Below, piece by piece: positions 1 through 16,106 of a stretch of DNA of 64,000 nucleotides; positions within the stretch are counted from its first letter, which is position 1; the number at the start of each line of letters is the position of its first letter. The translations under genes and the position numbers were made by a program. Below the pieces are notes generated by a model, which saw nothing but the letters and a program-made list of their open reading frames with translations, was not told where the DNA came from and did not search any database. Source of the stretch: an uncultured Verrucomicrobiae bacterium (GTDB lineage Bacteria > Verrucomicrobiota > Verrucomicrobiia > Palsa-1439). The stretch is taken from positions 9,708 through 73,707 of the forward strand of contig CAWEWF010000011.1 in the NCBI GenBank assembly GCA_963812605.1, written 5' to 3'.

Positions 1-68
1 CTCCTCAAGTAGCCGCACCCGATCGGGTCCGCTACGGAACCAAAAACCAAAAAAGAGGAGACACACAA

Positions 69-434
69 ATGTGGAGCAGAACTGTAGAAACGGCGGTGAA
101 GCTTGGCTTCGCGGTAAATCGCGGCAGCGTGGACGGCAATGTCGTTCTCGCCGCTGATGGCACAAAGCCGACATTCCCCGTCTTTAGTGAACGCCCCGAC
201 GTGGGCACGATCATCGCCGTGGGCAGCACGGTCGCCATTGTCACGGACGACGGCGACCGCGAAATCTACGTCATCCTGGGCAACACCGTCACCGAATTCC
301 AATTCGGCATGTCGGATGCGAACGGCGCCTGGATCCCGGCCACCACCGGCAATTACACGGGCGTGCAATTCCTGCAAAGCGGCGTCGCCGGCAACGTCGT
401 CAAGGCCCGCGCCGCGCAATTCAAACTCCCATAA
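69..434 (+). CDS. Putative capsid cement/decoration protein (DUF2190-like)
   Basis: 121 aa, beta-rich, GAGGAG RBS, immediately upstream of the major capsid gene. Confidence 0.55.
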   Translation: MWSRTVETAVKLGFAVNRGSVDGNVVLAADGTKPTFPVFSERPDVGTIIAVGSTVAIVTDDGDREIYVILGNTVTEFQFGMSDANGAWIPATTGNYTGVQFLQSGVAGNVVKARAAQFKLP

Positions 435-485
435 CCAAAAATTGTAGGGCAGGCCTCTTGCCCGCCGACGAAAGGAAACAAGTAC

Positions 486-1505
486 ATGGCATCCGAACCA
501 CAACTCCTGACTCTCAACGCGCAGCTCACGACGTTCGTCGCGGGCGTGCAACCGCCCGATTTGCTCGGCCGCATCATCGCGCCGACTTCTCCCGCGCAAT
601 TGATTTCCGATGTGAAATTCAACTGGTGGAAATTTGATCCCGCCGAATACCTGCGCAAGCAGGACACGAAGGTCAACCGCCGCGGCACCATTCCCGTGAC
701 GGATTTCAGTTTCATCACGGACTCCGATGTCCTTGCCGATCACGGCCAGCAGATCGTCAACCCCAACGATATCAGTCTCCTCAGCGAAGGCCAACCACCG
801 CAGATTTTGCAGGCGCCGGTAAATGTCCGCATGGCAAAACTCAAGGCGTTGACCGAGACGTTCTGGTTCTCGCACGAGTTCGAGGTAAACAGCCTCGTCT
901 TCGGCGCGGGCAATTACGCCGCGGCCAACACCCGCGTTGCCGCCACCACCGACATGCTCGACAATGCCGACAACGAGCCCATTAAGATCATCCAGACGTT
1001 GATCGACACACCATTGATTCCACCAAATGCGCTCGTCATGGGCCTCGCCGTCTGGCGTCCGCTGCAGCGCCATCCGCAGATGGTCAGCGCGATCAAGGCC
1101 GTCCTTGGCAGCCGCGCCGCCGTCAGCGGTCAGGTGAACCAGGACGAAGTTGCCGCGTTCTTCGGCCTGAAGCAGGTGCTCGTGGGCAAACAGCGCACCA
1201 ACGACGCGAACCCCGGTCAGGTCGCCAGCTACAGCCGCATCTGGGGCAAGCACCTGGCCGCGATTCGCATCGAGGACGCGCCGCAGTCTACTGTCTCACC
1301 GTATCCCGGCACCGCCCTGACCGCCTACGGCAACATCATGAACGCCGGCCCGGTTTTCGTCGCCTCGCGCACGATCCAGCCCGGCGAGGAAAACGGCGGC
1401 CTCTACGGCGCCGTCGCCGACATCATCGGCCACACCCGCAAGGTTCTCATGGTCAACCAGGACTCCTGCTACCTGTTGCAGAACTGCGTCACAAACGATG
1501 TGTAA
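486..1505 (+). CDS. Major capsid protein
   Basis: 339 aa; 'PNALVMGLAVWRPLQRHP' motif typical of capsid protein E-like family; AAAGGA RBS; synteny. Confidence 0.85.
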   Translation: MASEPQLLTLNAQLTTFVAGVQPPDLLGRIIAPTSPAQLISDVKFNWWKFDPAEYLRKQDTKVNRRGTIPVTDFSFITDSDVLADHGQQIVNPNDISLLSEGQPPQILQAPVNVRMAKLKALTETFWFSHEFEVNSLVFGAGNYAAANTRVAATTDMLDNADNEPIKIIQTLIDTPLIPPNALVMGLAVWRPLQRHPQMVSAIKAVLGSRAAVSGQVNQDEVAAFFGLKQVLVGKQRTNDANPGQVASYSRIWGKHLAAIRIEDAPQSTVSPYPGTALTAYGNIMNAGPVFVASRTIQPGEENGGLYGAVADIIGHTRKVLMVNQDSCYLLQNCVTNDV

Positions 1506-1572
1506 ATCCGCCTCTGATCCCCTCTCCCCACCGGGGGAGAGGGTTGGGGTGAGGGGGAACATAAAAATATGA
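1498..1572 (+). CDS. Repeat-containing bridging mini-ORF (24 aa)
   Basis: ATG overlaps the capsid stop (ATGTGTAA); TGA overlaps the next start (ATGA); reads through a REP-like hairpin. Confidence 0.45.
   Translation: MCKSASDPLSPPGERVGVRGNIKI
1519..1557. repeat. REP-like element CCCTCTCCCC..GGGGAGAGGG-TT(G/A)GGGTGAGGGG
   Basis: Further copies at 2161-2196 and 4240-4275. Confidence 0.85.
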
Positions 1573-2045
1573 CCATCATCAACGCTTTCCTGGCAGCCAG
1601 CGACGTGACCGACAACTTCAGCCCCGCGCAGCTTATCGAGATGCTCGACGATCCCGTGAATCCCACGGGCGCCTTAAATACCACTCTCCGTGACAAAATC
1701 ATCGCCCGCGTCAACGGCGAAGCCAGCAGCCTCGCCTCGGGCAAGCTCCTCTTCCCGCTGCAAGTCGACGACACCGATGCGGACAACATCAAGGCCACAC
1801 TCGCGGGCTTCGCACTCGACATGTTCGAGTACTACGCGATGAAGGACAAACCTCACATCCTTCAAGCGTTCACCGGCGTGCAAGACGGCTACAACCGCGC
1901 CATCGCCTGGCTCGAAGCCGTCCGCGACGGTAAAGCCACCATCGGCACCAGCAAAACCATCCCCGGCGCCGAAGCCCGCACTGCCGCTGTCGAAACCAGC
2001 CCCCACAAAGGCACTTTCGAGCGCAAACGAATGAGAGGTTGGTGA
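1569..2045 (+). CDS. Mu gp36-like head-tail connector (DUF1320)
   Basis: 'YNRAIAWLEAVRDGKATI' motif and C-terminal 'FERKRMRGW'. Confidence 0.8.
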   Translation: MTIINAFLAASDVTDNFSPAQLIEMLDDPVNPTGALNTTLRDKIIARVNGEASSLASGKLLFPLQVDDTDADNIKATLAGFALDMFEYYAMKDKPHILQAFTGVQDGYNRAIAWLEAVRDGKATIGTSKTIPGAEARTAAVETSPHKGTFERKRMRGW

Positions 2046-2203
2046 TGATTCCCTCGACTTTAATTGTAGGGCAAGCGCTTCGCTTGCCGTCGCGAATTGT
2101 AGGACAAGCGGCCCGCTTGTCGTCGTCGTTGGTAGGGCGCGCTGGCCCAGCGCGCCGTCTCCTCTCCCCTCCGGGGGAGAGGATTAAGGTGAGGGGAATA
2201 TAA
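2045..2203 (+). CDS. Repeat-containing bridging mini-ORF (52 aa)
   Basis: TGATG overlap with the upstream stop; open through four REP-like elements; TAA 2 nt before the next start. Confidence 0.45.
   Translation: MIPSTLIVGQALRLPSRIVGQAARLSSSLVGRAGPARRLLSPPGERIKVRGI
2066..2196. repeat. Cluster of three GTAG-type REP hairpins plus one CCCTCTCCC-type element
   Basis: Hairpins at 2066-2088, 2099-2121, 2132-2156 and 2161-2196; relatives at 444-466, 24409-24431, 58334-58356 and 58525-58547. Confidence 0.85.
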
Positions 2204-2205
2204 CA

Positions 2206-2749
2206 TTGCCCTTCACCATCGAACCACGCGGCTTCGACGAACAAGGCCAGCGCCTCCGGCTCATCGACGCCCGTCTCGACAACCTTGATCCGATCTTGAA
2301 CGTCCTCGCCTCCGACCTCGCACAAATGTGGCGCGACAACATCGATGCCGGCCCCAATGATCGCTGGCAAGCCGGTCTCTCCTATCGAGCCGAATCCCTC
2401 GGCGGTGTCACGTTGCGTGACCGCGGCTTGATGCAGGATTCCATCGTCGGCCAGCAGACCGGCCCGGCAGAAATCAGCGTCGGTAGCCCGCTCACGGTCG
2501 GTAATGACTGGAACCTGCTCGCCATTCACGAATTCGGCGCGGACGTGAAAGCGACAAACAAGCCGTGGCTCATGTTCCGTTATCCACTCGCCTCAGCCAC
2601 CGACTCCGGTTGGGCGCGCAAAAAAGCCATCACGATTCCGAAGCGCCCAACCGCCCCCTTCAATTGGGACAGTGGCGAACTAATGCCCGGAGGCAGAAAT
2701 CGCGGTTCAATCGCGCATCAACATTTATTTGGCGGAGATCTCACAATGA
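2206..2749 (+). CDS. Phage virion morphogenesis protein (Mu gpG-like); probable 1-nt indel near 2686
   Basis: 'TLRDRGLMQDSI', 'AIHEFG' and 'IPKRP' motifs; removing one base gives the natural end EAEIAVQSRINIYLAEISQ* at 2749. Confidence 0.75.
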
Positions 2750-2868
2750 AAACGTGCTTTCTGTCATGCCGAGCTTGTCGAGGCATCTCCTGCCGTTACC
2801 GCCCATGTGTCCCTGCGCTAGGCGCCACAATCACATTGGTTTCATCCTTCGAACGGGCGCGATCATGA
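2746..2868 (+). CDS. Repeat-containing bridging mini-ORF (40 aa)
   Basis: ATGA overlaps at both ends (the upstream one depends on the indel correction); contains the GTCATGCCGAGCTTGTCGAGGCATCTC repeat, with relatives at 43223 and 53141. Confidence 0.4.
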   Translation: MKTCFLSCRACRGISCRYRPCVPALGATITLVSSFERARS

Positions 2869-3398
2869 GCAATTACCTCATCGACATCGAAGATGCCATC
2901 ATCACCAAGGTCAACTCCGCCCTGCGACCGGACGACTCCACGCGCAATTTCTTCAATCGCGTGGACATCTTTCGCGGCGAGAAGGCCGAAGTCTTTCTCG
3001 CAGTCGCGCGTGAGACCGCGCCTTCCGCCTGGCTGCGTCTCGACCGCATCCTCAATAAGCCCGAGGAATTCAAAGGCGCGCGCGGCCTCGGTCAACCCGT
3101 CCTGCAAGGCACGTTGCGCAACGAGATTGCCTGTGTCTGGTCGCTGTTCCTCTGTGCCCGCTCGTTGCGCGCCACCAGGGAACTTTCCCACGGCGGCCCC
3201 GGCGTCATCGGCGCGTACGACATGATCAACCTCGTCGTCGGCCCGTCGGGTTCCCCGCCATCAACCGCCGGCCAGTTGCGCGGCTGGCCCCCCATCGCGC
3301 AAGCGGAGCCATTCGTTTTTGTCGGTCTGGAACTGCTCGGCCAGACGACGACTGAGACCGTCTACGAAGCTCAGTTCCGAACCCGGGTGCAACTGTGA
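2865..3398 (+). CDS. Mu gp37-like tail terminator/completion protein
   Basis: 'IEDAII' N-terminus, 'GAYDMI' motif, position before the tail tube gene. Confidence 0.7.
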   Translation: MSNYLIDIEDAIITKVNSALRPDDSTRNFFNRVDIFRGEKAEVFLAVARETAPSAWLRLDRILNKPEEFKGARGLGQPVLQGTLRNEIACVWSLFLCARSLRATRELSHGGPGVIGAYDMINLVVGPSGSPPSTAGQLRGWPPIAQAEPFVFVGLELLGQTTTETVYEAQFRTRVQL

Positions 3399-3438
3399 AC
3401 GAAATCATTGTCCAAAACCAAAAACGGAGGAATAAAAA

Positions 3439-4224
3439 ATGAGTAACTTGGCCATCCGCAATCGGCTGACCGTCGGCAACGTCTGGCAGGGCGGCGCGGT
3501 CGCGCTGTTCGACAGCAACTATCTCGGCGTCCTGCTCGACCTCGGTAATGTCACCGATTCCACGTTCGACCAGGAATTGGAGGCGACCGATTTCCGCACC
3601 GCTCGCGCTACGGGCACGCTCGTCACCGAAGCCCGTCCGATCAAGCGGCTCGAATTGCCCATCACCATCAAGTGCAACGCGCCCGACCCGAAAGCGCTCG
3701 ACCTCGCATTGTTCGGCACGGGCCAGGCCGCCTTCAGCCAGGCCTCCGCTTCGGCCACCACCCAGAATATCACCGTCGCCGCGCTCGACCTGTGGCACAA
3801 AATCGCCGGCTTCGAAATCGCCAACGTCGTCGTGAAAAAAGCCAGCACCACCGCCGTGTTCGGCACCGATTACGATCTGGACACCGAACTCGGCGCTGTC
3901 AAGCCGCTCACGGGCGGCATGTTCTCCGTCAGCGATACCATGGCGCTGACCTACGACCTGACGGCGATCAGCAAGGTCGAGAACCGGCCGCAAACCCACA
4001 TCGGCTTCGTCTACGGCGAATTCTACCTCTACATGGTCCTCCCGCCCAACGAAGGCCGCACCACCGAGCAGGTCTGGCTCCGTCACATGGCCAAGTCCCG
4101 CTTGGAACCGACCGGCAACTTCGACTTCAGCCCCGACAAACCTGCCGAGCAGTCATTCAAAATTACCCCCGTCCCAAGTGGCGACACGACCTATCCCTTC
4201 GGTTACCTGCGCCAAATCAAATAG
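3439..4224 (+). CDS. Major tail tube protein
   Basis: 261 aa; 'LGNV' and 'GTDYDLDTELGAVKPL' motifs; GGAGG RBS; synteny. Confidence 0.8.
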   Translation: MSNLAIRNRLTVGNVWQGGAVALFDSNYLGVLLDLGNVTDSTFDQELEATDFRTARATGTLVTEARPIKRLELPITIKCNAPDPKALDLALFGTGQAAFSQASASATTQNITVAALDLWHKIAGFEIANVVVKKASTTAVFGTDYDLDTELGAVKPLTGGMFSVSDTMALTYDLTAISKVENRPQTHIGFVYGEFYLYMVLPPNEGRTTEQVWLRHMAKSRLEPTGNFDFSPDKPAEQSFKITPVPSGDTTYPFGYLRQIK

Positions 4225-4285
4225 CAACCAACTCCCGTTCCCTCTCCCCTCGGGGGAGAGGGTTAGGGTGAGGGGAACCATACAT

Positions 4286-4717
4286 ATGACTGACCAAGCC
4301 GTAAGACCAAACGTGGAAGGCGAGCTTCATCCCGACTCCGAGATCGGGACGCGCCGCCGACTTCGCGAGTCGATCGAAGTCACCTACGCCGACGAACGCC
4401 GCGAGACCATCATCGTCAAACGCCTTTCCAACACCGACATGATCAAGTGGGCCGACACCGGCCTCGACAAGGCTTTCCTCGTCTTCCGTTCCGTTGAGCG
4501 CTCTGAGATTTCCAATCTCCAATCTCAAATCGGGCAGCTCTGGTTCGACTCCCTCACGCAGGACAGCGCCTTCGCCGTCGTCGAAAAGGCGCTCGCGCTG
4601 AACCATTCGCCGCTTCAAAAAAAAATGCTGGAGGCCGTCCTGGAAAATCTGCGGTCGTGGTTGTCAGCGATGCCCTCGACTTCCTCCGCGCCCGCGGCCA
4701 TGACCCCGAAAAACTGA
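4286..4717 (+). CDS. Tail assembly chaperone (G-like)
   Basis: Lies between tail tube and tape measure genes; slippery A-AAA-AAA at 4618-4624. Confidence 0.7.
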   Translation: MTDQAVRPNVEGELHPDSEIGTRRRLRESIEVTYADERRETIIVKRLSNTDMIKWADTGLDKAFLVFRSVERSEISNLQSQIGQLWFDSLTQDSAFAVVEKALALNHSPLQKKMLEAVLENLRSWLSAMPSTSSAPAAMTPKN

Positions 4718-4941
4718 CCGACTATGAAATCGAAGAGACTTTCACCGTCGCATTCAAAAACTGGCAGCACGGCCTGGTCGAAGCCGCGTTTTACACCGGC
4801 CTGCCATGGGTGACCAAACCGCGTGACTGGAAAAAATACTGTGATGACCTCCACCAGGCAATCGAAGGGACCTCACAACGCGCCGTCGCCGAGGAACTGC
4901 TCTCCAGCTTCCTCGCCCAGGGTGTTCCGGTCGCGAATTGA
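4657..4941 (+). CDS. Chaperone frameshift extension (T-like, -1 frame)
   Basis: The -1 frame is open from the A9 run to TGA 4941, which overlaps the tape measure start. Confidence 0.6.
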   Translation: MVVSDALDFLRARGHDPEKLTDYEIEETFTVAFKNWQHGLVEAAFYTGLPWVTKPRDWKKYCDDLHQAIEGTSQRAVAEELLSSFLAQGVPVAN

Positions 4942-6044
4942 CGCTGAAAGGCGATGAGATGGCAGCCAACAACATTGCCGAAATCATCCTGAAAGTTACG
5001 ACCGAAGGTCAGGGGAATGCCCAGGCTCTGGCCGCGCAATTGACCCAGCTCGATCAAGTGACGAACAAGGTGATGACCACCACCGTGGCCGCTACCTCCG
5101 CGCAAAAAACGTTTAATGCGGAAATCGGCAAGACGTCACCAGCCGCGGGTCTTGTCGCCAAGGCGCAATTCCAACAGCCCCCTTCACAATTGGAAAAGCT
5201 GTCGCAGAACTGGGGCGACCTGCAAAAGCAGGTCGATGGTTTCACCACGCACACCCTCCGGGATTTCACTTCCACGTCCGCGCGCGCGTTGACGCAATGG
5301 ATCGAGGGCTCGAAGAACGCGAAGCAGGCCTTTGCCGGTTTCGTCACCTCCGTCCTCGAAGGCATCATTCAAATAATGCTTCAGCAGACGATTGCCCACG
5401 CGCTTGGCCTGACACAGGCGCAAGTCTCCGCGCAAACACAGACTGTCGCGAACACGGAAATCGCCGCCAGCGCCGCGCCCGCCGCCGCGCTCACGGGCGC
5501 CGCCACCTTCGGGGCGAATTCCATCGGCGTGGCGCTGGTGATTGCCGCCGTGCTGGGTGGCGTCGGCGCATTGCTGGCCCTGACGCGTAAAGCGGAGGGC
5601 GGTCCGGTGTTTGGCGCGGGCAGCGAAACCAGCGATTCGATTCCGGCGTGGCTTTCGCAAAACGAATTCGTGCAACCCGCCTCCGCCCATAATTACTACG
5701 GCACCGATGTCATGGAAGCGATGCGGACGCGTTCCATCCCGCGTGATGCCATCCGCGCTTCGATGGAGCACCGCACCTTCTCGCTGGGAGGTATGGTGGC
5801 ACAGGCGTCTCTGCCTGTGAGGGCCTTTGCCGAAGGCGGTATCGCCGTGCGCATGGCCGGTGGCGGCATCATCCCGAATGTCAGCGTCGGCGGCGCGACT
5901 GTCTTGATGGCCTTCGGTCCGCAAGAGATCGACCGCTTGATGGCCACCAGCGAAATGCAGAAGCACCTCGACGATCATCTGGACCGCAATCGCCACCGCA
6001 TCGTACGCCACGTCAAACGCAGCGGAGGGACCCGCCAGGAATGA
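4938..6044 (+). CDS. Tape measure protein (short, about 361-368 aa; start may be ATG 4959)
   Basis: Ala/Gln-rich; C-terminal 'GGPVFGAGSETSDSIPAWLSQNEFV' tape measure motif. Confidence 0.85.
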   Translation: MTLKGDEMAANNIAEIILKVTTEGQGNAQALAAQLTQLDQVTNKVMTTTVAATSAQKTFNAEIGKTSPAAGLVAKAQFQQPPSQLEKLSQNWGDLQKQVDGFTTHTLRDFTSTSARALTQWIEGSKNAKQAFAGFVTSVLEGIIQIMLQQTIAHALGLTQAQVSAQTQTVANTEIAASAAPAAALTGAATFGANSIGVALVIAAVLGGVGALLALTRKAEGGPVFGAGSETSDSIPAWLSQNEFVQPASAHNYYGTDVMEAMRTRSIPRDAIRASMEHRTFSLGGMVAQASLPVRAFAEGGIAVRMAGGGIIPNVSVGGATVLMAFGPQEIDRLMATSEMQKHLDDHLDRNRHRIVRHVKRSGGTRQE

Positions 6045-7912
6045 TCAGCGGCCTCACCATCTTCCCGTTCCGTGCGAATTGGTCCAAGCCGATCACGCTG
6101 AAGTCCACCTTCGCGACGAACGTCAAGCGTGAGTCGATCCCCGGCAGCATCACGCGCGATAGCGCCCGCGACTACGGCCAGCGATCCATCAAGTTCAACA
6201 TCCTGCCTTACAATGATGGTGGCGCAGGCGTCCCTGCCTGCGTCCGTGACTCGTGGGACGCCTTCCGCGAGGCGAATCCGCCGGGCACGATCCTCGGCAT
6301 TCCGTTGTGGAGCGAGGAAGGCATTTACCTGACCGCCGACGCCGCGATCGGCGCGACGACTCTCTCGCTCTCCGCGGTGAACTTCGTGGACTGGCGCGGT
6401 GAAGCCGTCCTCTGGCCGTTCGGTAGTGGCGCGGGCGTCTCGCCCGCGGTCGTTGAAGGCGTCACCATCGCCAGCATCAGCGGCGCCATGATCAATCTTT
6501 CAAGCGCCCTTACAATCGCCTTTAAGGCCGGTGATCAATTCCTTCCCTTGATGCGCGGCTTTCAAATCGACGACTACGCCGAGCGCGTCCTCAGCCCGGA
6601 GATCTCCGAGCTGGTGCTGGAGTTTGTCGAGGACCTCGCGCACATCGGCGCGTATGCGGTCCCCGGCACGGTCAACGCCGTGTCGTATCTCGGCATCCCG
6701 GTCCTGCCGCTCATCGCCGAATGGAGCGAGCCGCCAACCGTCGGCATCACCCAGGGCACGCACGTGGTTTCGCAAGGGATCAATCGCCAGGCGCTCGCCA
6801 CGCTCCGTCAATACGTCCGCCAGCGCCTCTCCTATCGCGTCGGTTGCGACGGTCGCCAGGACCGCGCGACCATCTGGGAGTTCTTTCACGATCGCCGCGG
6901 ACGGTGGGACCGTTTCTGGCTGCCGTCGTTCAAGGATGAACTGAAACTTTCTGCCGATGTCGGCGCGACCGATACCTTCCTGACGCTGGAGAATTTCGCG
7001 GACTACAGCAGCCGCTTCAATCTCGGCGGCGACCTGCGCGTCTCAATCTTCATCACGGATGGCTTCAACTTCTGGATTCGCCAGGTCAAGAGCCTTTCCA
7101 CCGACAACTCAAACAAAGTGACGATTGATTTCGCGATCGGCTCTCCGCTTTCCGCTTCCGCGACGATGATCGGCCTGTTGCCCCTCGTGCAGTTCGCCAC
7201 CGACGATATCGAGATCGAATGCCAGTCGCCGCTCGTCGCCACCGCGACCCTGGCCTTCACCGAACTGGAACGGGAATACGTCGAAGTGGACGCTACCTCG
7301 TGGCCGCCCGTGGGCGGCACCGCCGGCGGAACCGGTACCGGCGGATTGAACAATGCACCGCCTCCCCCAGCAACGCCTTGCAGTAATTTTGATTCGGGCA
7401 CCACGCCCAGCCAACTGCTGATCCATGTGAAGATTCAGGGGCCACCGCCCGGCGTGTGCACCGCCTACGAAGTCGGCAACACGCTGAAGATGGTCTACCA
7501 AAACGTGCCCGGCGACTTCGACGCGAACGGGCTCTTCGAGCACGACCTGGTTGCCACGCAGGTCTCGGGCAGTCCCTGTGTGTATGAGACGGCCACCGCG
7601 GACTATTTCGGCGGCGGCGGCGCGGTGTATATGGCCGCGCAAACCTACTCCGACAATCACTGCGGCACGGGCGGCGGCATCGGCGCAACCGTCAACGGTT
7701 TCTTCCGGCTCACCAAGCAGGCCACGTCGATGCTGATCCAGTGGGTCGTCGTGGGCAGCCCCACACACATCATCCGCGACCAAACGTTCACCTGCACCAG
7801 CGACGGCAACGCCCTCAACGGCGTCGGCGGCCAGCTCGCCAACGAGTATTCCTACGAGCAACTCTTTTCCCTAGTGCTCAGCACGTTCACCGTGGAGATC
7901 GTCCAGCCATGA
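6041..7912 (+). CDS. Distal tail-like protein with Cys-rich C-terminal extension
   Basis: 'FFHDRRGRWDRFWLP' motif; follows the tape measure gene with ATGA overlap. Confidence 0.7.
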   Translation: MISGLTIFPFRANWSKPITLKSTFATNVKRESIPGSITRDSARDYGQRSIKFNILPYNDGGAGVPACVRDSWDAFREANPPGTILGIPLWSEEGIYLTADAAIGATTLSLSAVNFVDWRGEAVLWPFGSGAGVSPAVVEGVTIASISGAMINLSSALTIAFKAGDQFLPLMRGFQIDDYAERVLSPEISELVLEFVEDLAHIGAYAVPGTVNAVSYLGIPVLPLIAEWSEPPTVGITQGTHVVSQGINRQALATLRQYVRQRLSYRVGCDGRQDRATIWEFFHDRRGRWDRFWLPSFKDELKLSADVGATDTFLTLENFADYSSRFNLGGDLRVSIFITDGFNFWIRQVKSLSTDNSNKVTIDFAIGSPLSASATMIGLLPLVQFATDDIEIECQSPLVATATLAFTELEREYVEVDATSWPPVGGTAGGTGTGGLNNAPPPPATPCSNFDSGTTPSQLLIHVKIQGPPPGVCTAYEVGNTLKMVYQNVPGDFDANGLFEHDLVATQVSGSPCVYETATADYFGGGGAVYMAAQTYSDNHCGTGGGIGATVNGFFRLTKQATSMLIQWVVVGSPTHIIRDQTFTCTSDGNALNGVGGQLANEYSYEQLFSLVLSTFTVEIVQP

Positions 7913-8022
7913 GAGGCTCACCCTCCATCCGCTGTAGCCGCGTCCCGATTCCGAGATCGGGACGCGCGCCGCGTTGGTGTAGCCACGGCTCTGTGAGCCG
8001 TGAGGGCCAGGATCGCCAATGA
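7909..8022 (+). CDS. Repeat-containing bridging mini-ORF (37 aa)
   Basis: ATGA overlaps at both ends; reads through two GTAGCC hairpins at about 7934-7966 and 7979-8002. Confidence 0.45.
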   Translation: MRGSPSIRCSRVPIPRSGRAPRWCSHGSVSREGQDRQ

Positions 8023-9512
8023 GAACACTTCCTCCAGCCTGGCTTGCACTGGAATTCACGCGCGAGCGCCAGGTCGCGCTGTTGATCCATATCTTCGCGC
8101 GGCGCGACGGACGCGTGACGCTGCCGAACGGCTGGGGCTCGTGGACGTATTCAGTCGGCTTTCAGGGCAACGTCAACTTCACCGACCTGGCCAACTACGC
8201 GAGCGACGGCATCCAGTCACGCACGTATGTCCCTGCCGCGATTGAATTCGACCCGAGCCAGGTCTTTCGCAAGGAGAGTACCGCCCTGGATCCGCACGAC
8301 ATTACCCTGACGGTTGATCCTTCGCTCGATCCGTTTGCCAATTACGTCAACCGCCAGTGGCCGCTGACCTTCGGCATCGTGATCTACAAAGTGCACCGCA
8401 ACGGCAATGCTGTGCTGACGGTGGACAACGGCAGCGGGACGCAGGTGCCTGTCGTGGACGTGGCGTTCATCGGCTATCTCGATGCCGACGATACGCTGGA
8501 GGTCAACAGCGCCGGCCTGCAGCAGACCATCGAGGGCGGCAAGCTGAAGCTGGAAACCAAGTGGGACCACATCACCAAGAAGTTTGATCGTCCGGTGCCG
8601 CGCCCCATCTTCAGCATCGAATGCCCCAAGGCGCTCTTCTCGTCATCGGGCACGGCGGCGGTCGATTGCAACGCGGACATGCAATACGTTCGCATCGACG
8701 GCCTCGTGTTGCAGGCCAGTGGCGCGGTGATCAGCGCCACGGAGTGGTATGGAAAGCCCGGAGGTTGGTTCGCGGAGGGTTTGCTCGAATATGTTGCGAC
8801 CGATCCGATCAGCGGCTTGGATTTCGGCTTCGCGCTGAGAATCATTTCCAGCACGCAGCACACCGCTTCCGGCGTGAACTACGGCGACCTGACGCTCGAA
8901 ATGTTTCCGCCATTGCCAATCATCGGCGCGGTCGTCTCCGCGTTCGGTGGTTGCGACCGCGTGCGGTCCACGTGCATCACCAAGCACATCCCGAGCGGCA
9001 CGGTCCCGCCCGCGCCGGGCACGCCGACGCCGGGCGATATTCGCGTGGCCCTGCAGCTCTTCAATAGCGTCCACGGCAACGCCAAGACCGCCTACGTGAT
9101 CATCACCCCGACGCTCCTGACGATCAAATACACCGGCACCGATACGACGCAGATCGGCAATTTCGCAATCAATAACGTGGACTGGACCACAACCACGATG
9201 GTCCCGCTCGGCGGCAGTTCGCTGATAACGAGTCCAGGCTTTACGCTGACAGCCGGCAGCACCGGACCGCCAAACGCGACCGGCTACGTCTTCACTCTCA
9301 CTAACAACGGATCAGGCAACCCGACGATCAGCCAGAAGCCCACTGCTGCCAACGGCTTCACCCTGATCGTCAAGATGAGCCACCAGGCGGCATACGATTT
9401 CACGGTCAATTGGGTGCCGAGCAATGGATCGCCCATCAATCTCGGCAACCTGCAAAACTTCGGCGGCACCGACATCCCCATCGAGCACCCATCCCTGGAG
9501 ACCACGAAGTGA
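8019..9512 (+). CDS. Baseplate hub protein (DUF2163/BR0599 family)
   Basis: Cys pattern C-x(14)-C ... GCDRVRSTC ... NLQNFGG. Confidence 0.8.
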   Translation: MRTLPPAWLALEFTRERQVALLIHIFARRDGRVTLPNGWGSWTYSVGFQGNVNFTDLANYASDGIQSRTYVPAAIEFDPSQVFRKESTALDPHDITLTVDPSLDPFANYVNRQWPLTFGIVIYKVHRNGNAVLTVDNGSGTQVPVVDVAFIGYLDADDTLEVNSAGLQQTIEGGKLKLETKWDHITKKFDRPVPRPIFSIECPKALFSSSGTAAVDCNADMQYVRIDGLVLQASGAVISATEWYGKPGGWFAEGLLEYVATDPISGLDFGFALRIISSTQHTASGVNYGDLTLEMFPPLPIIGAVVSAFGGCDRVRSTCITKHIPSGTVPPAPGTPTPGDIRVALQLFNSVHGNAKTAYVIITPTLLTIKYTGTDTTQIGNFAINNVDWTTTTMVPLGGSSLITSPGFTLTAGSTGPPNATGYVFTLTNNGSGNPTISQKPTAANGFTLIVKMSHQAAYDFTVNWVPSNGSPINLGNLQNFGGTDIPIEHPSLETTK

Positions 9513-9637
9513 GGAACGAAAAAACAAACGCTCAACATTCAACTTCCAACGTTGAACGTCCAACGGGGAAAACTGCCGGCGACTTCGACGTTGAGCGTTC
9601 AACGTTGAACGTTGGACATTCGGGAGTTTCCGCATGA
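9509..9637 (+). CDS. Repeat-containing bridging mini-ORF (42 aa)
   Basis: GTGA overlap upstream, ATGA overlap downstream; encoded by an inverted heptamer array. Confidence 0.45.
   Translation: MRNEKTNAQHSTSNVERPTGKTAGDFDVERSTLNVGHSGVSA
9527..9620. repeat. Inverted pair of heptamer tandem arrays (AACGTTC/G-like)
   Basis: aacgctc-aacattc-aacttcc-aacgttg-aacgtcc, a spacer, then reverse-complement-like units. Confidence 0.8.
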
Positions 9638-10185
9638 CACCGCACTGTCCATACTTCCCGAACAACCAGCCGCGCATCGATGCGCTCCTGGCGCAGCTCG
9701 CCGCGTGGGAAGGCACGCGCTGGCGGCACGCGGGCGCGCGACCCAACGACATGCGCTGTGGCATCAGTGGTGATTGCCTGTTTTGGGTTCACGCGTTCAA
9801 GGCCATCGGCGCGCTGCCGGCAAAGTTGGAGATCCCGGACTATCGCCTGCACGAAGCCAGCGCCGACGAAATGCAGACGCTCCGTCGTTGCATCGAAGCA
9901 ACCGGCCGCGCATTGCTGACGTGGGCGCGGCCTGGTAGCGCGAGCGTCCCGCTTGCGGTCGTTCCGAAGATGGCAAGCGGGACGCTCGCCCTACAAAATT
10001 TTGCGATCGGCGACGTGCTGCTCTTCAAGAACGGCACCAGCGGCGCCCACTGCGGCCTCGCAGTCAAGGAATCGCCGCTCCACTTCGTCCACCTCACCGG
10101 CAACGGCCTGCTCGAAGAGCCGTTCCACCAGTCCCATTACATCGCCGCGCTGGCATACGTGTATCGACTGTTGGAGGACGCGTGA
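9634..10185 (+). CDS. NlpC/P60 tail-associated peptidase
   Basis: 'WEGTRWRH', 'GDC' and 'HCG' catalytic motifs; position between hub and tip genes. Confidence 0.85.
   Translation: MTPHCPYFPNNQPRIDALLAQLAAWEGTRWRHAGARPNDMRCGISGDCLFWVHAFKAIGALPAKLEIPDYRLHEASADEMQTLRRCIEATGRALLTWARPGSASVPLAVVPKMASGTLALQNFAIGDVLLFKNGTSGAHCGLAVKESPLHFVHLTGNGLLEEPFHQSHYIAALAYVYRLLEDA
9935..9994. repeat. 60-bp REP doublet (GTAG...CTAC) in frame inside the NlpC/P60 gene
   Basis: Closely similar 60-bp copy at 13234-13293. Confidence 0.85.
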
Positions 10186-10274
10186 AACACGTATTCCGGT
10201 GTAGCCGCGCCTCTATGAGGCGCGTTCGTTCCGCACGGCTCGCAGAGCCGTGGCTACATAAGGAGGCGGCGTAA
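10182..10274 (+). CDS. Repeat-containing bridging mini-ORF (30 aa)
   Basis: GTGA overlap upstream, TAATG overlap downstream; contains the REP doublet 10201-10258. Confidence 0.45.
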   Translation: MKHVFRCSRASMRRVRSARLAEPWLHKEAA

Positions 10275-13218
10275 TGGGTTTTCTCGGCGGCTCCAACGCA
10301 GGTGTTAACTCGAACCGGCGCGCGGTCACGCAATCGCCTGTCGCTTCCAACATTCTCGGCACACCCTGGCCGACGCTGTGGGGCCTGCGCGACTTGAACG
10401 GGACCGTCATCGCCTGGACGAATCACCGATTCAGCAACGCGGGCTCTTCCGGCAAAGGCGGTGGCCAGGTTTCCTCCGGCGAGAAGGATTACCGCACGTT
10501 CGCGCTCGGCTTGTGCATCGGGCCGGTGGATCGCATCACGCAAATCTGGTACGACAATGAGTTGATCTGGGAAGGCAATGTTGGCGTAGCCTCCGCGGCA
10601 ACCGTCGCCACGGCCACGGTCGGTGTCGGCGGCGTCGTTCTTACCGACAACGTTGCGCGCGGGACGATCACGTTCTATTTCGGGTTGGACACACAGACCC
10701 AAGACCCGGTGCTCGCTCAATTCATTCCCGACGTGCCGTTCTACCGCGGCATGTGCTACGCAGTGTTCCACGGGCCCCGTAGTGGCTCTCGGGGCTTTCG
10801 CCTGGGCAACGCGGACACACTCGCGCAGGTCGCGCTGTACGTGGAGCGCATCCCGAAGACATTTGCGGGAATCTCGTTCACGGCCAGCGTCGAGGAGAAT
10901 CCCGGCAACGCGTCGAACGAATTGCAACCCATCACCATTATGGCTAGACGCGTCCGGCTTTCACGGGCACGAGCGATGTGGAGTACTCGCTGCTGGCCCG
11001 CGAGCAGATCGGTTCCAATTCACAACTGAACGTCGCGTGGGCTTCCGAGACGGGCAGTGACACAACCGGCTCGGCGCTCATCACCAACGGCACTCCTTTC
11101 GCTGTCGGCACGCTCGGTTTGATGGTCACGCTGTCGTGGGGCTCGAACGCATCGCCGCCACTGGAGACCGTCCTGGTCGCCATCTGGGAGATCTTCCTTA
11201 CCAGCGCCGTCAGCGCCATCGGCGGCGCGAACGTCGCGAGCATCATCTACGAGCTGCTTACCAGTAGCGTGCACGGCGTCGCGCTGGATGCTGCGGTCCT
11301 CGACATGCCCGCGTTCCAGAACGCCGCCGCCGCCGTGACACAGATGGGCCTTTCCTGGGCGGTCAAACAAAAGGGCGATGCGCGCACGCTCATCGAGGAC
11401 ATCCTGAAGAGCGTCCAGGGCGCGCTCGTCATCAGCAACGGCGCCATCGGGCCGCGCCTGCTCACCGGCGGTACGGTGGCGCTGACGCTTGAACCAGATG
11501 ACATCGTCGGCCTCAAGCAACGCCCCGGTTGCTGGTACGAGGTTCCGCAATACGCGACCGTCAAGTACGCGGACATCAATCGCAAGTTCCACGACACCAT
11601 TCTCCCGCTGCCAGGCGCGGGAGATTTTGGCGACGACGAAAAGACAATGGAGATCGCGTTGCCGATGGTCACCGACAACGGCGTGGCGCGCTTGATCGGC
11701 TCGCGGCTGCGCACGCTGGAGGCTCTCCCAAAGAATCCCGACACCATTCTCTGCGGTCGCGGCGCGTTTCAACTCCAGTTCGGCGACGTGCTTTTGATCA
11801 ACGATGCCGCGCGCGGCTTCGACCCGACCTTGCCGATGATCATCATCGCCATCCGCGAGCACGGCGCGGGCGATGAAGTGATCGAGATCGATGTCGTGCC
11901 CGACGTGTTCAGCCCGTTGCCGGCAACAACGGCAGTCGTCGGCGGCACAAACGGGCCAGGACAAGGCGCTTCAGGAACGCCCATTGACCCGATCTCGCTG
12001 CAGGAGCTTGTCGAGTTGCCATTCGATTTCGCCCCGGACGGCTCGAAACAGTTCACCTTGTTCGCCGCGCGTCCCGATCCCGACGTGCAGGGCATGACGC
12101 TCTACGCGTCCACCGAGAACCCGCCCGTCGATTACAACGGCGTGGACGATTCTGCTCCCTTTCACGCGGGCGGCACGTTCGTCGATGCGAGCCTTCCAAA
12201 ATTCACGATGGATCGCGAAGCCTACATCGACTTCACGCAGGGCAGCGACGACATCGAGGCGTTCTCGTCGCTCTCGGACAACGATTGGTTTGGATATCAA
12301 ATGCTCGTGCTCGTTGGCGCTGGCATCAACGCAGGACTCTACGCGGCGCGCGAGTTGGTGTTTCTCGGCGGCATAAGCTGGCGGCTACGAGGAATCTTTG
12401 GGCCGCTATCAGACACGCCAGTCCCCACGCCAAATCCCGGCGATCCCGTGTTCGTCTTCGCTGTCCGCCCGCTTTATAATCTGGCTGGCCAGCCATCGTG
12501 GGTGATCAATTCGCTCCTGACGTTCAAAGGGATTCCTTTCGGCAGTAGAATCTCCCCGACGCTGGCGCAAACGGTCGCCACCGGCCTCACGATCCTTTCG
12601 CGCGCCGCGTGCCCGCGCCCCGCGCAGAATCTCAACGCCAACGGTCGCGGCGGAATTGCCTCGCCGTTCTATAGTGGCGCGGGCGGCTCGCCCGCGAGTG
12701 ATATTAACCTGGCGTGGGACCTGTGCAATCGCGCGTCGGGTTTCGGCGCGGAGACCATCCCTTGCGAGTTTGATCCATCCGTCGCCACGGAGATCGCGAC
12801 GTGCGCCATCGAGATTTGGGTCGCTGGAACGCTCGTGCGCACCGACGCGGCCAATGTCCGCGCCGCCGTCGCGACCGCGGTGGCCACCGCAACCAGCGCC
12901 CTGCAATTCGATGTCGCTTCGGTCGCCGGATTACAGCCCGGCGACCGCATCAGTGTCGTCCACGGCGCGGCGCACGAATACTTCGGGCGTATCGCCTCGA
13001 TCAGTGGCCTGACGATCACGCTCGTCTCGCCGATCGCGATTCCGCCCGCGCTGGGCGACACCGTGAATTGCTACGAATCCGTCGGCTACATCTACACCGC
13101 CGCCAACAACGTCGCCGACAACGGCAGCCTCGCCGCCGCCGTGGACATCAAGGTCTACCCAATCTTAAACGGCCTGCGCGCCCTGCGCCCGGCAGAAATC
13201 CTGGTGACAAAGATATGA
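10274..13218 (+). CDS. Large tail tip/host-specificity protein (lambda J or RcGTA g15-like); frameshift near 10920-10970
   Basis: 'YRTFALGLCIGPVDRITQIWYD' and 'PFYRGMCYAVF' motifs; continues in ORF 10978-13218. Confidence 0.8.
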
Positions 13219-13310
13219 TCACATTTTCCGATGGTAGCGCGACCGTCCCGTTTGCGGTCGTTATGACCAGGGCAAGCGGGACGCTCGCCCTACGAGGCAG
13301 AACATCATGA
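13215..13310 (+). CDS. Repeat-containing bridging mini-ORF (31 aa)
   Basis: ATGA overlaps at both ends; contains the 60-bp REP doublet. Confidence 0.45.
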   Translation: MITFSDGSATVPFAVVMTRASGTLALRGRTS

Positions 13311-13774
13311 GCGTCCTCTCCAACGGCACCGAAGATCTCCAGGGCCAGAACCTCACGCCGGCAGCCGCGTATGCTGTGGCCAACACCGCTTTCCAAAAAA
13401 TCGCACTGATGTGTCTCCTCGACAAGGACGTGCCATTTTACGGCCTGCCGCGCGACGGCGCGATTCGCGGCACATCGCAGATCGCCATCGAACGTCTCAT
13501 CACCGCCGTCGAGATTCGCGCCGAAGGGTCCGCGCCCGTTGGCAGTTCCCTGATCGTGCAACTGATCGTCGGCGGCGTGCTGCAGTCGCAACAGTACGCG
13601 CTTCCCGCCGCCAGCGCCTACGCCCTGGTCGCCGTCATCAATGACGGCAACGGCGGCGCCTCCGGCTCGGGTCTCGTCGTCCCCGCCAACACGACGCTGG
13701 CCGTCCAGATCACCAGCGGCAACCAGGCCGTCGATGTCGTCGTCACTCCCAAAACCCAACTGAGGATTCTCTGA
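13307..13774 (+). CDS. Hypothetical phage tail-associated protein
   Basis: 155 aa beta-rich ORF within the operon. Confidence 0.65.
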   Translation: MSVLSNGTEDLQGQNLTPAAAYAVANTAFQKIALMCLLDKDVPFYGLPRDGAIRGTSQIAIERLITAVEIRAEGSAPVGSSLIVQLIVGGVLQSQQYALPAASAYALVAVINDGNGGASGSGLVVPANTTLAVQITSGNQAVDVVVTPKTQLRIL

Positions 13775-13776
13775 CC

Positions 13777-15720
13777 ATGAAACGCACTTTAATTCTCCTT
13801 TCACTGGTGGCGCAGGCGTCCCTGCCTGCGGTCGTCCGCGCCGGCAACGTCTACCCCGACCGCGTGATTGTCGGCGTCGCCACCGGCGAAGTTGACGAAA
13901 CGCAGTACAGCACCAACGACGTTTCGCTCACCGTCACCAATCTGCCCGGCGGCGGTCGTCGCGCCATCCTTGGGATCAGCGGCAGCGCTTCCAAAGAAAC
14001 CACCAACGCCGCCCTCGACAAGCTCCGCCTCAACGACGGCGGCTCGCTGACGAACGTTCCTTCGCCGGCAGGCATGGTCACCAACAATCAGCGCAATGTA
14101 AGTCTGGGATTTCCTCCCGACCTGTGGGTCTGGCCAACGTTCGTGGATGCCGACGACAATTTACAATTCTTCATCGGGGGACTCACCAACGCGATCCCGC
14201 TCGCGCCGAACCCGATACTAGTGGGCAATGCGAGTTGGTTTTTCCGCGACGGCAGCATGATTGAGGGAGCGGACGGTGTGTTCACCATCGCCAACACGAT
14301 CAACATCAATCCCACCAACGGCTTCGGGCTAACCAAGACAACCGACCTCAGGACGGCGCTTGCCAATACCTTCGTCTCTGTGGCCTCCGTATTGGCGAGC
14401 AATGGACTGGTATATGCGCCGGAAGAGGCGATCACGCCGTCAGCCACCACCAATATAGTCGTCACCATTGCCACGAATGGCACCAGCGGCCTGGCTCTCT
14501 TCGTCATGCAGGCCACCAATACGACGCTGACCGCATTCACCACGCCGACGGCGATCTCGATCACCAACAGCGGCATCTGGACGGTGCCTTCCAGCGGCAA
14601 CTTCAACGATGGGTTCTACAAGTACCGCAACGGCAAGCACTGGCTCCTTTTCACCGGCAACGACACGATGGTTTATGTCGCGTCCTCGACCAACGGCATC
14701 GGCGGTCCGTACGGCATGGCCGGCGCCTTTACCGGCCTGACCAACGCGACTCTCTCGGCAATTGAGGGTCCATCCATTTTCGATATCGCGCAGGCCAACG
14801 GGACCACCAACAGCTATTTGATCTGCGCCGCCGCGTTCGCGCCCTCGCGCCAGGAAGAGCGCATGGGCTGGTCGGTCACGACCAATGATTGGACCACGTT
14901 CACCACGACAAACCAGTGGGCATCCTTTTCGGCGCTCGTGCCGGTCAACGCCTCGCTCTTAATCAACCATTGCACTCCATTCCACGTGGAATCGATGACC
15001 GCGATGAAGGCCCTGCTGGCGCGCCTCTTTAGTGGACGTTACCCGGCCACGCCCATTCCGAAGTCGATCTCCTACACCGGCAGCTTCGGCCTGGATGTGC
15101 CGCAATTCGGGCTCCAGGACCCTATTTTCCAGCGATGGTCCGGCATGACTGTCTACACGAACGCTGGCGTCGGCTTGGTCGCCGGCAGCGACATCAAGTT
15201 CATCATGACCACCAACGGCAACTTCTACGCCGGCGGATTCGGCCAGACCGAACTGAATCCCGATCCGCCGGCCGAGTTCAACCCCAACGAGCGCTTCTGG
15301 ATGATGAGCAACCCGAACGCCAACGGCGATTCGTACTTTTGGTTCCGAGTCCTGACCGGCAGCGGAGTCGTGTTCGGCATTGGCAATCACAACGGCACGG
15401 GTTTCCTGGCGGAAGAAGGGGCCGCGCCGATTCAATTCTGGGTCAACGCCAACTCCGGCAGTTCGACGCCCTTCAGCGGCGCGACAATCACTTTCTCCGT
15501 GGACCAGGCCTCGGCCACCAGCCAGGTGCCGTTTGATGTGGAAGGCACGTTGACGGAGAAGGGGCATCCGGTGATTACGAACGGAGTGCCACTGGGAAGT
15601 TCACTGTCACAACGGTCCTCCATCACCAACGCACCCGCCGCCGCCGTTTCCTCGCCAACCGCGTGGGCGGACATCATCGGCACCAACGGCCAGCACTACG
15701 TTGTGCCGTTATACCAATAA
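13777..15720 (+). CDS. Signal-peptide-bearing Thr/Asn-rich protein with a putative GH43-like beta-propeller
   Basis: MKRTLILLSLV...VRA signal-like N-terminus; 'YKYRNGKHWLLF..YVASS..IGGPY..IEGPSIF' motifs. Confidence 0.55.
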   Translation: MKRTLILLSLVAQASLPAVVRAGNVYPDRVIVGVATGEVDETQYSTNDVSLTVTNLPGGGRRAILGISGSASKETTNAALDKLRLNDGGSLTNVPSPAGMVTNNQRNVSLGFPPDLWVWPTFVDADDNLQFFIGGLTNAIPLAPNPILVGNASWFFRDGSMIEGADGVFTIANTININPTNGFGLTKTTDLRTALANTFVSVASVLASNGLVYAPEEAITPSATTNIVVTIATNGTSGLALFVMQATNTTLTAFTTPTAISITNSGIWTVPSSGNFNDGFYKYRNGKHWLLFTGNDTMVYVASSTNGIGGPYGMAGAFTGLTNATLSAIEGPSIFDIAQANGTTNSYLICAAAFAPSRQEERMGWSVTTNDWTTFTTTNQWASFSALVPVNASLLINHCTPFHVESMTAMKALLARLFSGRYPATPIPKSISYTGSFGLDVPQFGLQDPIFQRWSGMTVYTNAGVGLVAGSDIKFIMTTNGNFYAGGFGQTELNPDPPAEFNPNERFWMMSNPNANGDSYFWFRVLTGSGVVFGIGNHNGTGFLAEEGAAPIQFWVNANSGSSTPFSGATITFSVDQASATSQVPFDVEGTLTEKGHPVITNGVPLGSSLSQRSSITNAPAAAVSSPTAWADIIGTNGQHYVVPLYQ

Positions 15721-15734
15721 CCCCGAAAGGAACC

Positions 15735-16106
15735 ATGAATCGAAAGATGAAACTCTCCGCCATCGCCGCCTCCATCGTCGCCGGCATCACGGCCATTGCC
15801 TGCGCCTCCCTGAGCACCGGGCCGGTTGGATCCGGCACAACTTCGGCCGGCGTTCCCCCCACGCCGCAGGCCCCGCTGATCTCAAACATCGGCGTGACAT
15901 CGATGACGGTATCGTGGGTCGGCGGCACACCTACCGCGAGCAATTCCGCCACCGTGTTCTATCTCGTGCAGATGTCCGCCACCAATCAATCGAACTTCGC
16001 GACCGTCGCCTCCAACGATGTCACCATCACCAGCGTCACGATCTCCAACCTGACACCGTCCACCACCTATTTCTTCCGCATTGTCGCCGGCGATGGAAAA
16101 CCGTAG
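15735..16106 (+). CDS. Exported or lipoprotein fibronectin type III domain protein
   Basis: 'SMTVSW' and 'ISNLTPSTTYFFRIVA' FN3 motifs; hydrophobic leader ending AIAC. Confidence 0.8.
   Translation: MNRKMKLSAIAASIVAGITAIACASLSTGPVGSGTTSAGVPPTPQAPLISNIGVTSMTVSWVGGTPTASNSATVFYLVQMSATNQSNFATVASNDVTITSVTISNLTPSTTYFFRIVAGDGKP

Follow-up and report, generated by a model that had tools for sequence, protein, structure and literature searches.

Mycobacterial interspersed repetitive units (MIRUs) were reportedly first described by Supply et al. in 1997, and Rickettsia palindromic elements (RPEs), reported by Ogata et al. in 2000, are said to be palindromic repeats that are tolerated in frame inside protein genes. 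In the engineered 'bicistronic design', a short upstream open reading frame (ORF) delivers ribosomes. Termination-reinitiation coupling takes place at stop/start overlaps, where a short upstream ORF can deliver ribosomes, according to the available part of PMC12548453. The available parts of PMC12548453 and PMC3184786 describe MIRUs as mobile repeats found at start codons, whose internal ORF is coupled at −4 and which show tetranucleotide direct repeats and both filled and empty sites, an arrangement interpreted there as minimising harm to expression. Repetitive extragenic palindromic (REP) sequences tagged with GTAG form a REP/REPIN superfamily with RAYT (Y1) transposases, and the part of PMC3733652 available describes REPs that touch or lie within ORFs. 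Here we describe a siphovirus-type virion operon in a 64,000-nt stretch of DNA from an uncultured Verrucomicrobiae bacterium (the window; G000:C11:9708-73707, where G000 is the source genome, 4.17 Mb in 15 contigs), in which repeats lying between genes are crossed by mini-ORFs running from the stop codon of one gene to the start codon of the next. An earlier note on this DNA, in which the MIRU precedent was not named, had proposed that these mini-ORFs relay ribosomes across the repeats. Comparison with related loci suggests that selection probably preserves a termination-reinitiation chain across repeat insertions at those junctions where genes formerly overlapped.

The virion operon occupies positions 486-15720 of the + strand, as indicated by PHROGs matches and by synteny with 21 related elements. 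Its PHROGs-assigned products are major head, head-tail adaptor, neck, major tail, tape measure and tail/baseplate proteins. Eight junctions (J1 to J8) hold a + strand mini-ORF. At J1 (1498-1572) it crosses a conserved hairpin element (CCCCTCTCCCC..GGGGAGAGGG..GGTGAGGGG), and at J2 (2045-2203) three GTAG REPs plus the hairpin element, with a TAA ending 2 nt before a TTG start. The J3 mini-ORF (2746-2868, ATGA...ATGA) crosses a repeat detected by k-mer masking, and J4 (3395-3442, GTGA/ATGA) is a 15-codon ORF in a 40-nt repeat-free spacer. The remaining four cross two GTAG REPs (J5, 7909-8022, ATGA...ATGA), a heptamer-built hairpin (J6, 9509-9637, GTGA...ATGA), an inverted GTAG REP pair (J7, 10182-10274, GTGA...TAATG) and a 60-nt REPIN doublet (J8, 13215-13310, ATGA...ATGA).

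Direct reading of the window sequence showed that all eight mini-ORFs have a length that is a multiple of 3 and zero internal stops. The start codon of each is ATG or GTG and overlaps or directly adjoins the upstream stop (contexts ATGTGTAA, TGATG, ATGA and GTGA), and their stops overlap the downstream start or end 2 nt before it (contexts ATGA, TAATG and TAA-ca-TTG). The relay frame is the sole open + frame in 6/8 gaps. The coordinates and the start and stop contexts given in the earlier note all hold, and its observation that GTAG REPs are read so as to avoid their TAG was borne out, the frames being GTA-G.. or xGT-AGC. Its description of operon gaps as spanned by relays applies to 8/11 gaps; those at 13-68, 435-485 and 4225-4285 have none. 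The gap at 435-485, found in a scan of the operon gaps, precedes the major head gene and contains a GTAG REP. That at 4225-4285 follows the major tail gene and contains a further copy of the hairpin element, with no start codon near the TAG stop; the true start downstream of it is probably ATG 4286.

At J3, the mini-ORF is literally the tail of ORF 2206-2868, because one base near 2686-2696, extra relative to all relatives and seen in the alignment with L001 and L002, puts gene 2206-2749 into the mini-ORF frame. The upstream gene in relatives stops at the TGA equivalent to 2747-2749, so that the indel correction applied at 2746 in the earlier note was justified. The extra base replaces the last ~19 residues of the neck-type gene and adds ~40 repeat-encoded residues, and could reflect either a true mutation or an error of assembly. 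Four DNA sequencing runs from a single study, consulted for the extra base and for presence/absence variation of the inserts, yielded only short contigs of low depth.

Related loci were gathered from a genome collection (two), from same-genus genomes and one other genome (eleven stretches), from metagenomes (15) and from viral contigs (7). The final comparison set comprised the window and 21 non-redundant loci. Near-duplicates (L016, L020, L021, L024, L025, L031, L032, L034 and L035), loci on the same contigs as L004 and L005 (L001 and L002), one distant relative (L013) and fragments without junctions (L023 and L028) were left out. Gene ends in the relatives were located by tblastn with the window proteins, and starts were taken as the start codon nearest aligned residue 1. 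A gap was scored as bridged if a start codon at the upstream stop opened a frame whose stop ended −4 to +12 nt from the downstream start. Gaps of 15-260 nt were counted. This dropped the gaps of 320 nt in L009 and 508 nt in L022 at J6, both with real ORFs; L026 at J7 and the g4657-g4938 junction were dropped because their starts lay over 6 nt from where they were expected, and J5 of L009 and L012 because the upstream stop could not be placed. The nulls were dinucleotide shuffles of equal length and all 1- and 2-nt deletions of each gap. Kinship was corrected for by collapsing gaps at ≥60% identity.

Six junction types have a majority −4 overlap (g2206/g2865, g4938/g6041, g6041/g8019, g8019/g9634, g9634/g10274 and g10978/g13307), and these take in J3, J5, J6, J7 and J8. 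Empty sites in the relatives are direct ATGA or GTGA overlaps at J3, J5, J6 and J8, and a 3-nt spacer at J2; the earlier note had called for this comparison with relatives lacking the repeats. At the overlap-type junctions 28/32 gaps were bridged, compared with 14.3 expected from shuffling and 3.5 from 1-2 nt deletions. Collapsing similar gaps left 21/24 bridged (10.1 expected, P = 1.1e-8, or 2.3 expected, respectively). Under a strict ATGA/TAATG definition with no length filter, 25/35 were bridged including J3 of the window (24/34 without it), and the frame offset permitted ATGA...ATGA in 25/32 gaps. The four unbridged gaps all still bring an ORF to the downstream start: two ORFs stop 8 nt inside the next gene (ATGTCTAG, ATGGCTAA), one gap holds a two-step chain of ATGA-linked mini-ORFs, and one holds a real small gene with an ATGA end. 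Among the other frames of the bridged gaps, just 16/56 were open.

The same outcome was obtained junction by junction, with unrelated repeat families. Bridging was found in 6/7 gaps at J3 and 2/3 at J6, the remaining gap of each stopping 8 nt into the next gene; in 3/3 at J5; and in 2/2 at J7, where the L004 insert is a different repeat and is bridged too. J8 is the clearest junction, with 12/13 gaps bridged and the thirteenth holding the two-step ATGA chain. In L009 the J8 gap is 22 nt long and holds a 9-codon ORF with no repeat, and 8/10 J8 gap lengths equal these 22 nt plus a multiple of 3 (+18, 48, 51, 54, 54, 66, 69 and 81 nt). These eight gaps contain different repeats at differing points between conserved flanks. 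The mini-ORFs at 2746, 7909, 9509, 10182 and 13215 belong to the relay set: J3, J5, J6, J7 and J8 are above chance, J2 probably is, and J1 and J4 are not, so that the significance attached to all eight mini-ORFs in the earlier note stands for five of them and probably a sixth.

The start codons of the mini-ORFs are preceded by Shine-Dalgarno (SD)-like pairing of a strength (median −7.4 kcal/mol) similar to that of downstream genes at overlapped junctions (−7.7 kcal/mol, n = 64). SD strength and pairing in the start region did not separate bridged from unbridged gaps. No terminator-like sites were found on the + strand in the gaps, and no Rfam families were found in window positions 1-16000.

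Junctions that were not ancestrally overlapped behaved differently. Four never-overlapped head-module junctions, which lie upstream of the range covered by the earlier note, were bridged in 0/30 gaps, with frame offsets of 12/9/9, and several of these unbridged gaps carry REPs adding 23, 23, 25, 64 or 68 nt. J1 follows the capsid gene and has the conserved hairpin and an SD-led downstream gene; it was bridged in 1/17 gaps (the window only), compared with 1.3 expected. The ATG of the J1 mini-ORF results from a synonymous C>T change found in the window alone, and lacks an SD (−0.1 kcal/mol). At J4, 7/11 gaps were bridged compared with 5.0-6.0 expected, and in the close relatives L003 and L015 the spacer is 39 nt long and holds no relay. 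The ORFs 1498-1572 and 3395-3442 are best read as chance ORFs. J2 was bridged in 4/9 gaps compared with 0.5 expected; the hairpin element is common to all four, and carries an open frame with a TAA end just before the start. The J2 gap of the window exceeds that of L015 by 81 nt (27 codons), and 2045-2203 is a probable relay. The earlier proposal that insertions persist only where a relay is possible thus fits the overlap-type junctions, with 28/32 bridged, and its 'only' fails at the head module and J1.

We propose the following explanation. The late genes would have been ancestrally chained by 4-nt ATGA or GTGA stop-start overlaps, which let a ribosome that finishes one gene reinitiate at the following one. 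Palindromic repeats (GTAG REPs, REPIN doublets, heptamer-built hairpins and others) would have entered these junctions repeatedly and in separate lineages, each insertion moving the downstream start 20-230 nt away from the old initiation region, which would remain at the end of the upstream gene. In the inserts that survived, the old start codon would open a stop-free frame that crosses the repeat and ends at the displaced start or a few bases from it. A ribosome could then reinitiate, translate through the hairpin while unfolding it, stop at the downstream ATG and initiate once more, and insertions that break the frame would be purged by selection. Bridging is confined to former stop-start overlaps, which argues for selection for an intact termination-reinitiation chain, and not for a general avoidance of untranslated repeats. 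Tandem duplication of the junction is a possible origin of the first short gap: xTGA is present at both ends of the inserts, and a by-eye comparison of insert flanks with the true gene ends showed a suggestive resemblance for J5 and J7 and a weak one for J8 and J3.

Several points weigh against this explanation. The downstream genes of bridged gaps keep SD-like motifs (median −6.6 kcal/mol), so that a dependence of downstream expression on coupling through the mini-ORFs is inferred, as is translation of the mini-ORFs themselves. The loci are related, clustering at 60% identity is crude, and some J3 and J8 gaps are of shared ancestry. The junction classes and the −4 to +12 nt relay window were set after the sequences had been seen. 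The heptamer hairpins are read in one recurring frame, which is possibly a property of the element instead of a result of selection. Outside the operon, under a wider definition, REP gaps of 60-250 nt were bridged in 8/69 cases compared with 3.75 expected (P = 0.015), a weak excess, and repeat-free gaps were at expectation (23/590 compared with 21.9). The genome-wide count against shuffled gaps that the earlier note had asked for is therefore positive for REP gaps, weakly so. These counts depend on a simple purpose-written gene caller (3422 genes), which got 11/12 homology-supported operon starts correct and missed one. In its 2454 co-directional neighbour pairs, the frame offset between neighbouring genes was near uniform, and a relay ORF, with the tolerances of the earlier note, occurred in 40/895 gaps of 30-249 nt, six of them from the virion operon. 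Bridging is no strong genome-wide rule.

The ORFs might instead be carried by the repeats themselves, as in MIRUs, if mobile units target xTGA overlaps, duplicate the tetranucleotide and bring a fitting ORF with them, with no need of later selection. The xTGA at both insert ends resembles the tetranucleotide direct repeats of MIRUs (PMC3184786, available part). The heptamer hairpins of L004, L011, L022 and the window share a frame (...EFR.S.F..RV...) ending ~10 nt before the ATGA, and this family is rare elsewhere, with 3 partial matches outside prophages in the two host genomes searched. One host heptamer hairpin, between lysS and a permease gene in L040, looks ATGA...ATGA bridged on hand reading without a script; the orthologous host site in L039, of the same genus, follows a TAG stop and was read by hand as unbridged. 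To our knowledge GTAG REPs do not make target duplications, and several unrelated repeat families take part. REPs at J8 lie at varied places within an older 9-codon mini-ORF with unrepeated flanks, repeats of these kinds are unbridged at non-overlap junctions and add lengths there that are not multiples of 3, and the copies of one REPIN family in neutral DNA are of mixed length, 60 and 61 nt. Given the diversity of families and the uneven length of neutral copies, we consider a design wholly intrinsic to the elements unlikely overall; it may yet apply to the heptamer hairpins, recurrent in one frame. The earlier note had itself offered the prevention of polarity, whereby continuous translation would protect the mRNA over the repeat against Rho or nucleases, with no role in ribosome delivery. 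The frame data fit this account too. However, untranslated REP-bearing gaps of 51-248 nt are tolerated in the operon and its relatives (the unbridged head-module gaps, 4225-4285 and 435-485), so that REPs persist unbridged and in any phase at spacer or SD-led junctions, and polarity should not discriminate between junction types; the contrast favours coupling and makes this account very unlikely.

The other alternative raised in the earlier note, that the mini-ORFs are in-frame scars, shrunken from small accessory genes that formerly had ATGA overlaps at both ends, found little support. These junctions do acquire real genes (L022, L019 and L033), and L009 has its 320-nt gap. Most relatives, however, have plain 4-nt overlaps, the mini-ORFs of the window are almost entirely host-type repeats, and a shrinkage that always kept the frame would itself require selection for coupling, so that such an origin seems most improbable. 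Chance, aided by GC-rich sequence, common ATGA contexts and flexible criteria, accounts for J1 and J4, which match their nulls. Its raw material is plentiful: TGA is the stop of 1368/2454 upstream genes, A follows the start in 1217/2454, and the genome beyond the operon has as many as 161 double-xTGA gaps (phases 45/61/55). As an explanation of J3 and J5 to J8 it is hardly credible, since the null comparisons at overlap-type junctions reject it, and relay ORFs occupy so few of the co-directional gaps genome-wide even with those of the operon included.

The repeats themselves are multi-copy, as the earlier note had stated for seven of the gaps. Searches with blastn-short gave extra genome matches for the gap repeats of J1 (13), J2 (77), J5 (11), J6 (3), J7 (14) and J8 (24). 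These counts were used in place of k-mer masks, of which 12-mers were too permissive (17% of the genome, mainly genic) and 14- and 16-mers too insensitive. A regular-expression search for tandem heptamers gave noise only. The GTAG-type elements have a GTAG head followed by a GC-rich palindrome and many dispersed copies, as expected of GTAG-type REP/REPIN sequences, with 20 matches, and 62 forward and 83 reverse arms at ≤5 mismatches. Four Y1_Tnp (PF01797) homologs in the genome score over the Pfam cut-off and are candidates for a cognate RAYT transposase. The hairpin element consists of CCTCTCCCC-loop-GGGGAGAGG followed by ATTAAGGTGAGGGG and has 25 genome copies. Its three operon copies (1522-1560, 2160-2196 and 4232-4275) follow the capsid, adaptor and major tail genes and all lie 9-37 nt upstream of gene starts, whereas most other copies are distant from any start.

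Repeats also occur in frame inside genes. The tape measure gene contains a REP of 4 residues at 5794-5819, an insertion missing from relatives. Tail gene 6041-7912 contains two, of 8 residues at 6217-6242 (a gap in 4/4 aligned relatives) and of 6 residues at 6423-6447 (a gap in 3/4). The repeat search found a 60-nt REPIN doublet at 9935-9994 inside gene 9634-10185, likewise missing from relatives and in the same reading frame as the J8 copy; all of these are on the + strand. In L003, L008 and L011 a repeat is read as an in-frame C-terminal extension of g9634, up to the ATGA. J8-family REPIN doublets in intergenic DNA elsewhere are 60, 60, 72, 61, 61 and 61 nt long, and 4/4 on the prophage contig are multiples of 3 (three in genes and one in J8). 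Two of the doublets lie inside called genes upstream of the window (G000:C11:1364-1423, 60 nt, and 3358-3441, 84 nt), and the prophage contig holds 4/11 of those in the genome. Gene 13777-15720 contains, at window 13804-13830, one of the 58 copies of the REP that is most abundant in the genome (CAGGCAGGGACGCCTG type).

Other features of the operon were noted. A capsid homolog with 87-98% identity is present in 10/17 other same-genus genomes and in 14/101 relatives searched, G000 included; in a phylum-wide sample of 400 genomes, G000 itself was the sole match (1/401). Tail gene 6041-7912 has a C-terminal extension of ~189 residues from ~7343, missing in relatives of the 434-residue type, and the J5 insert sits directly after it. 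Real accessory genes, overlapping at one or both ends, occur at the same junctions in L022 (g8019/g9634, a 169-residue lipoprotein-like ORF), L019 (g4938/g6041, a 64-residue ORF) and L033 (g4938/g6041, a small SD-led gene). Immediately ahead of the tape measure gene, where the frameshifted tail-chaperone pair is usually found, ORFs 4286-4717 and 4657-4941 lie in different frames and overlap. Upstream of the window, a 288-codon ORF (G000:C11:7607-8473) starts on the stop of the portal gene (TGATG) and ends 8 nt into the next gene (ATGTCTGA). It covers a segment of variable length among relatives, and the simple gene caller favored a minus-strand gene there.

How far coupling matters to natural operons has mostly been judged from a small number of reporter studies. 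The roughly two dozen repeat insertions in this operon family, many apparently independent, amount to a natural mutagenesis screen: at overlap-type junctions nearly only frame-preserving inserts survive, and at SD-led junctions of the same operon any insert does, a contrast that makes dependence on coupling readable from sequence. The operon would also show a route from selfish repeats to translated peptides and to extensions of proteins. In tightly coupled operons such as those of phage late genes, a general rule might be that any DNA entering a stop-start overlap must become or extend an ORF ending at the next start; this is offered tentatively and may well not hold. Under such a rule, the share of frame-preserving insertions would be a genome-readable gauge of the reliance of each gene on termination-reinitiation versus independent initiation, and selfish repeats would routinely become translated sequence, as relay mini-ORFs, C-terminal tails and in-gene loops.

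Among known systems the closest are the MIRUs, the only precedent in the literature searched, in which neither REP/REPIN-filled bridging ORFs nor such a pattern in phage operons was found. Like MIRUs, the repeats at J2, J3 and J5 to J8 lie between co-oriented genes of an operon (here + strand virion genes), a reading frame crossing the repeat overlaps the stop before it and the start after it (−4) in the window and relatives, and filled and empty sites occur among relatives with the same tetranucleotide on both sides. MIRUs, in contrast, are a single dedicated family with its own conserved ORF, often in tandem, whereas the repeats here come from several unrelated families and form no tandem variable-number arrays, the three 33-nt-spaced REPs of J2 being the only serial ones; the present case also belongs to another phylum and to a phage virion operon. 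Several unrelated families share the pattern, which suggests that the ORF is dictated by the site, not brought in by the element. The system, compared by description and not by sequence, functions like MIRUs but stands outside the MIRU family because a single element family with its own ORF is lacking, and it would carry the MIRU concept over to phages and to ordinary REP/REPIN elements.

The GTAG head and GC-rich stem, the occurrence as singles and inverted doublets, and the multiple copies agree with the REP/REPIN superfamily. The difference is that the available part of PMC3733652 has REPs that give stop codons or lie inside ORFs, and no stand-alone bridging ORFs running from stop to start. 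The in-gene repeats at 5794, 6217, 6423 and 9935 are comparable to those of RPEs, although RPEs lie inside genes, whereas the main feature here lies between them. With termination-reinitiation systems the operon shares ATGA and TAATG overlaps and a short ORF whose sole role would be to bring the ribosome to the next start and unfold local structure; here, in contrast, the short ORFs derive from insertions of selfish repeats and are chained serially along one operon.

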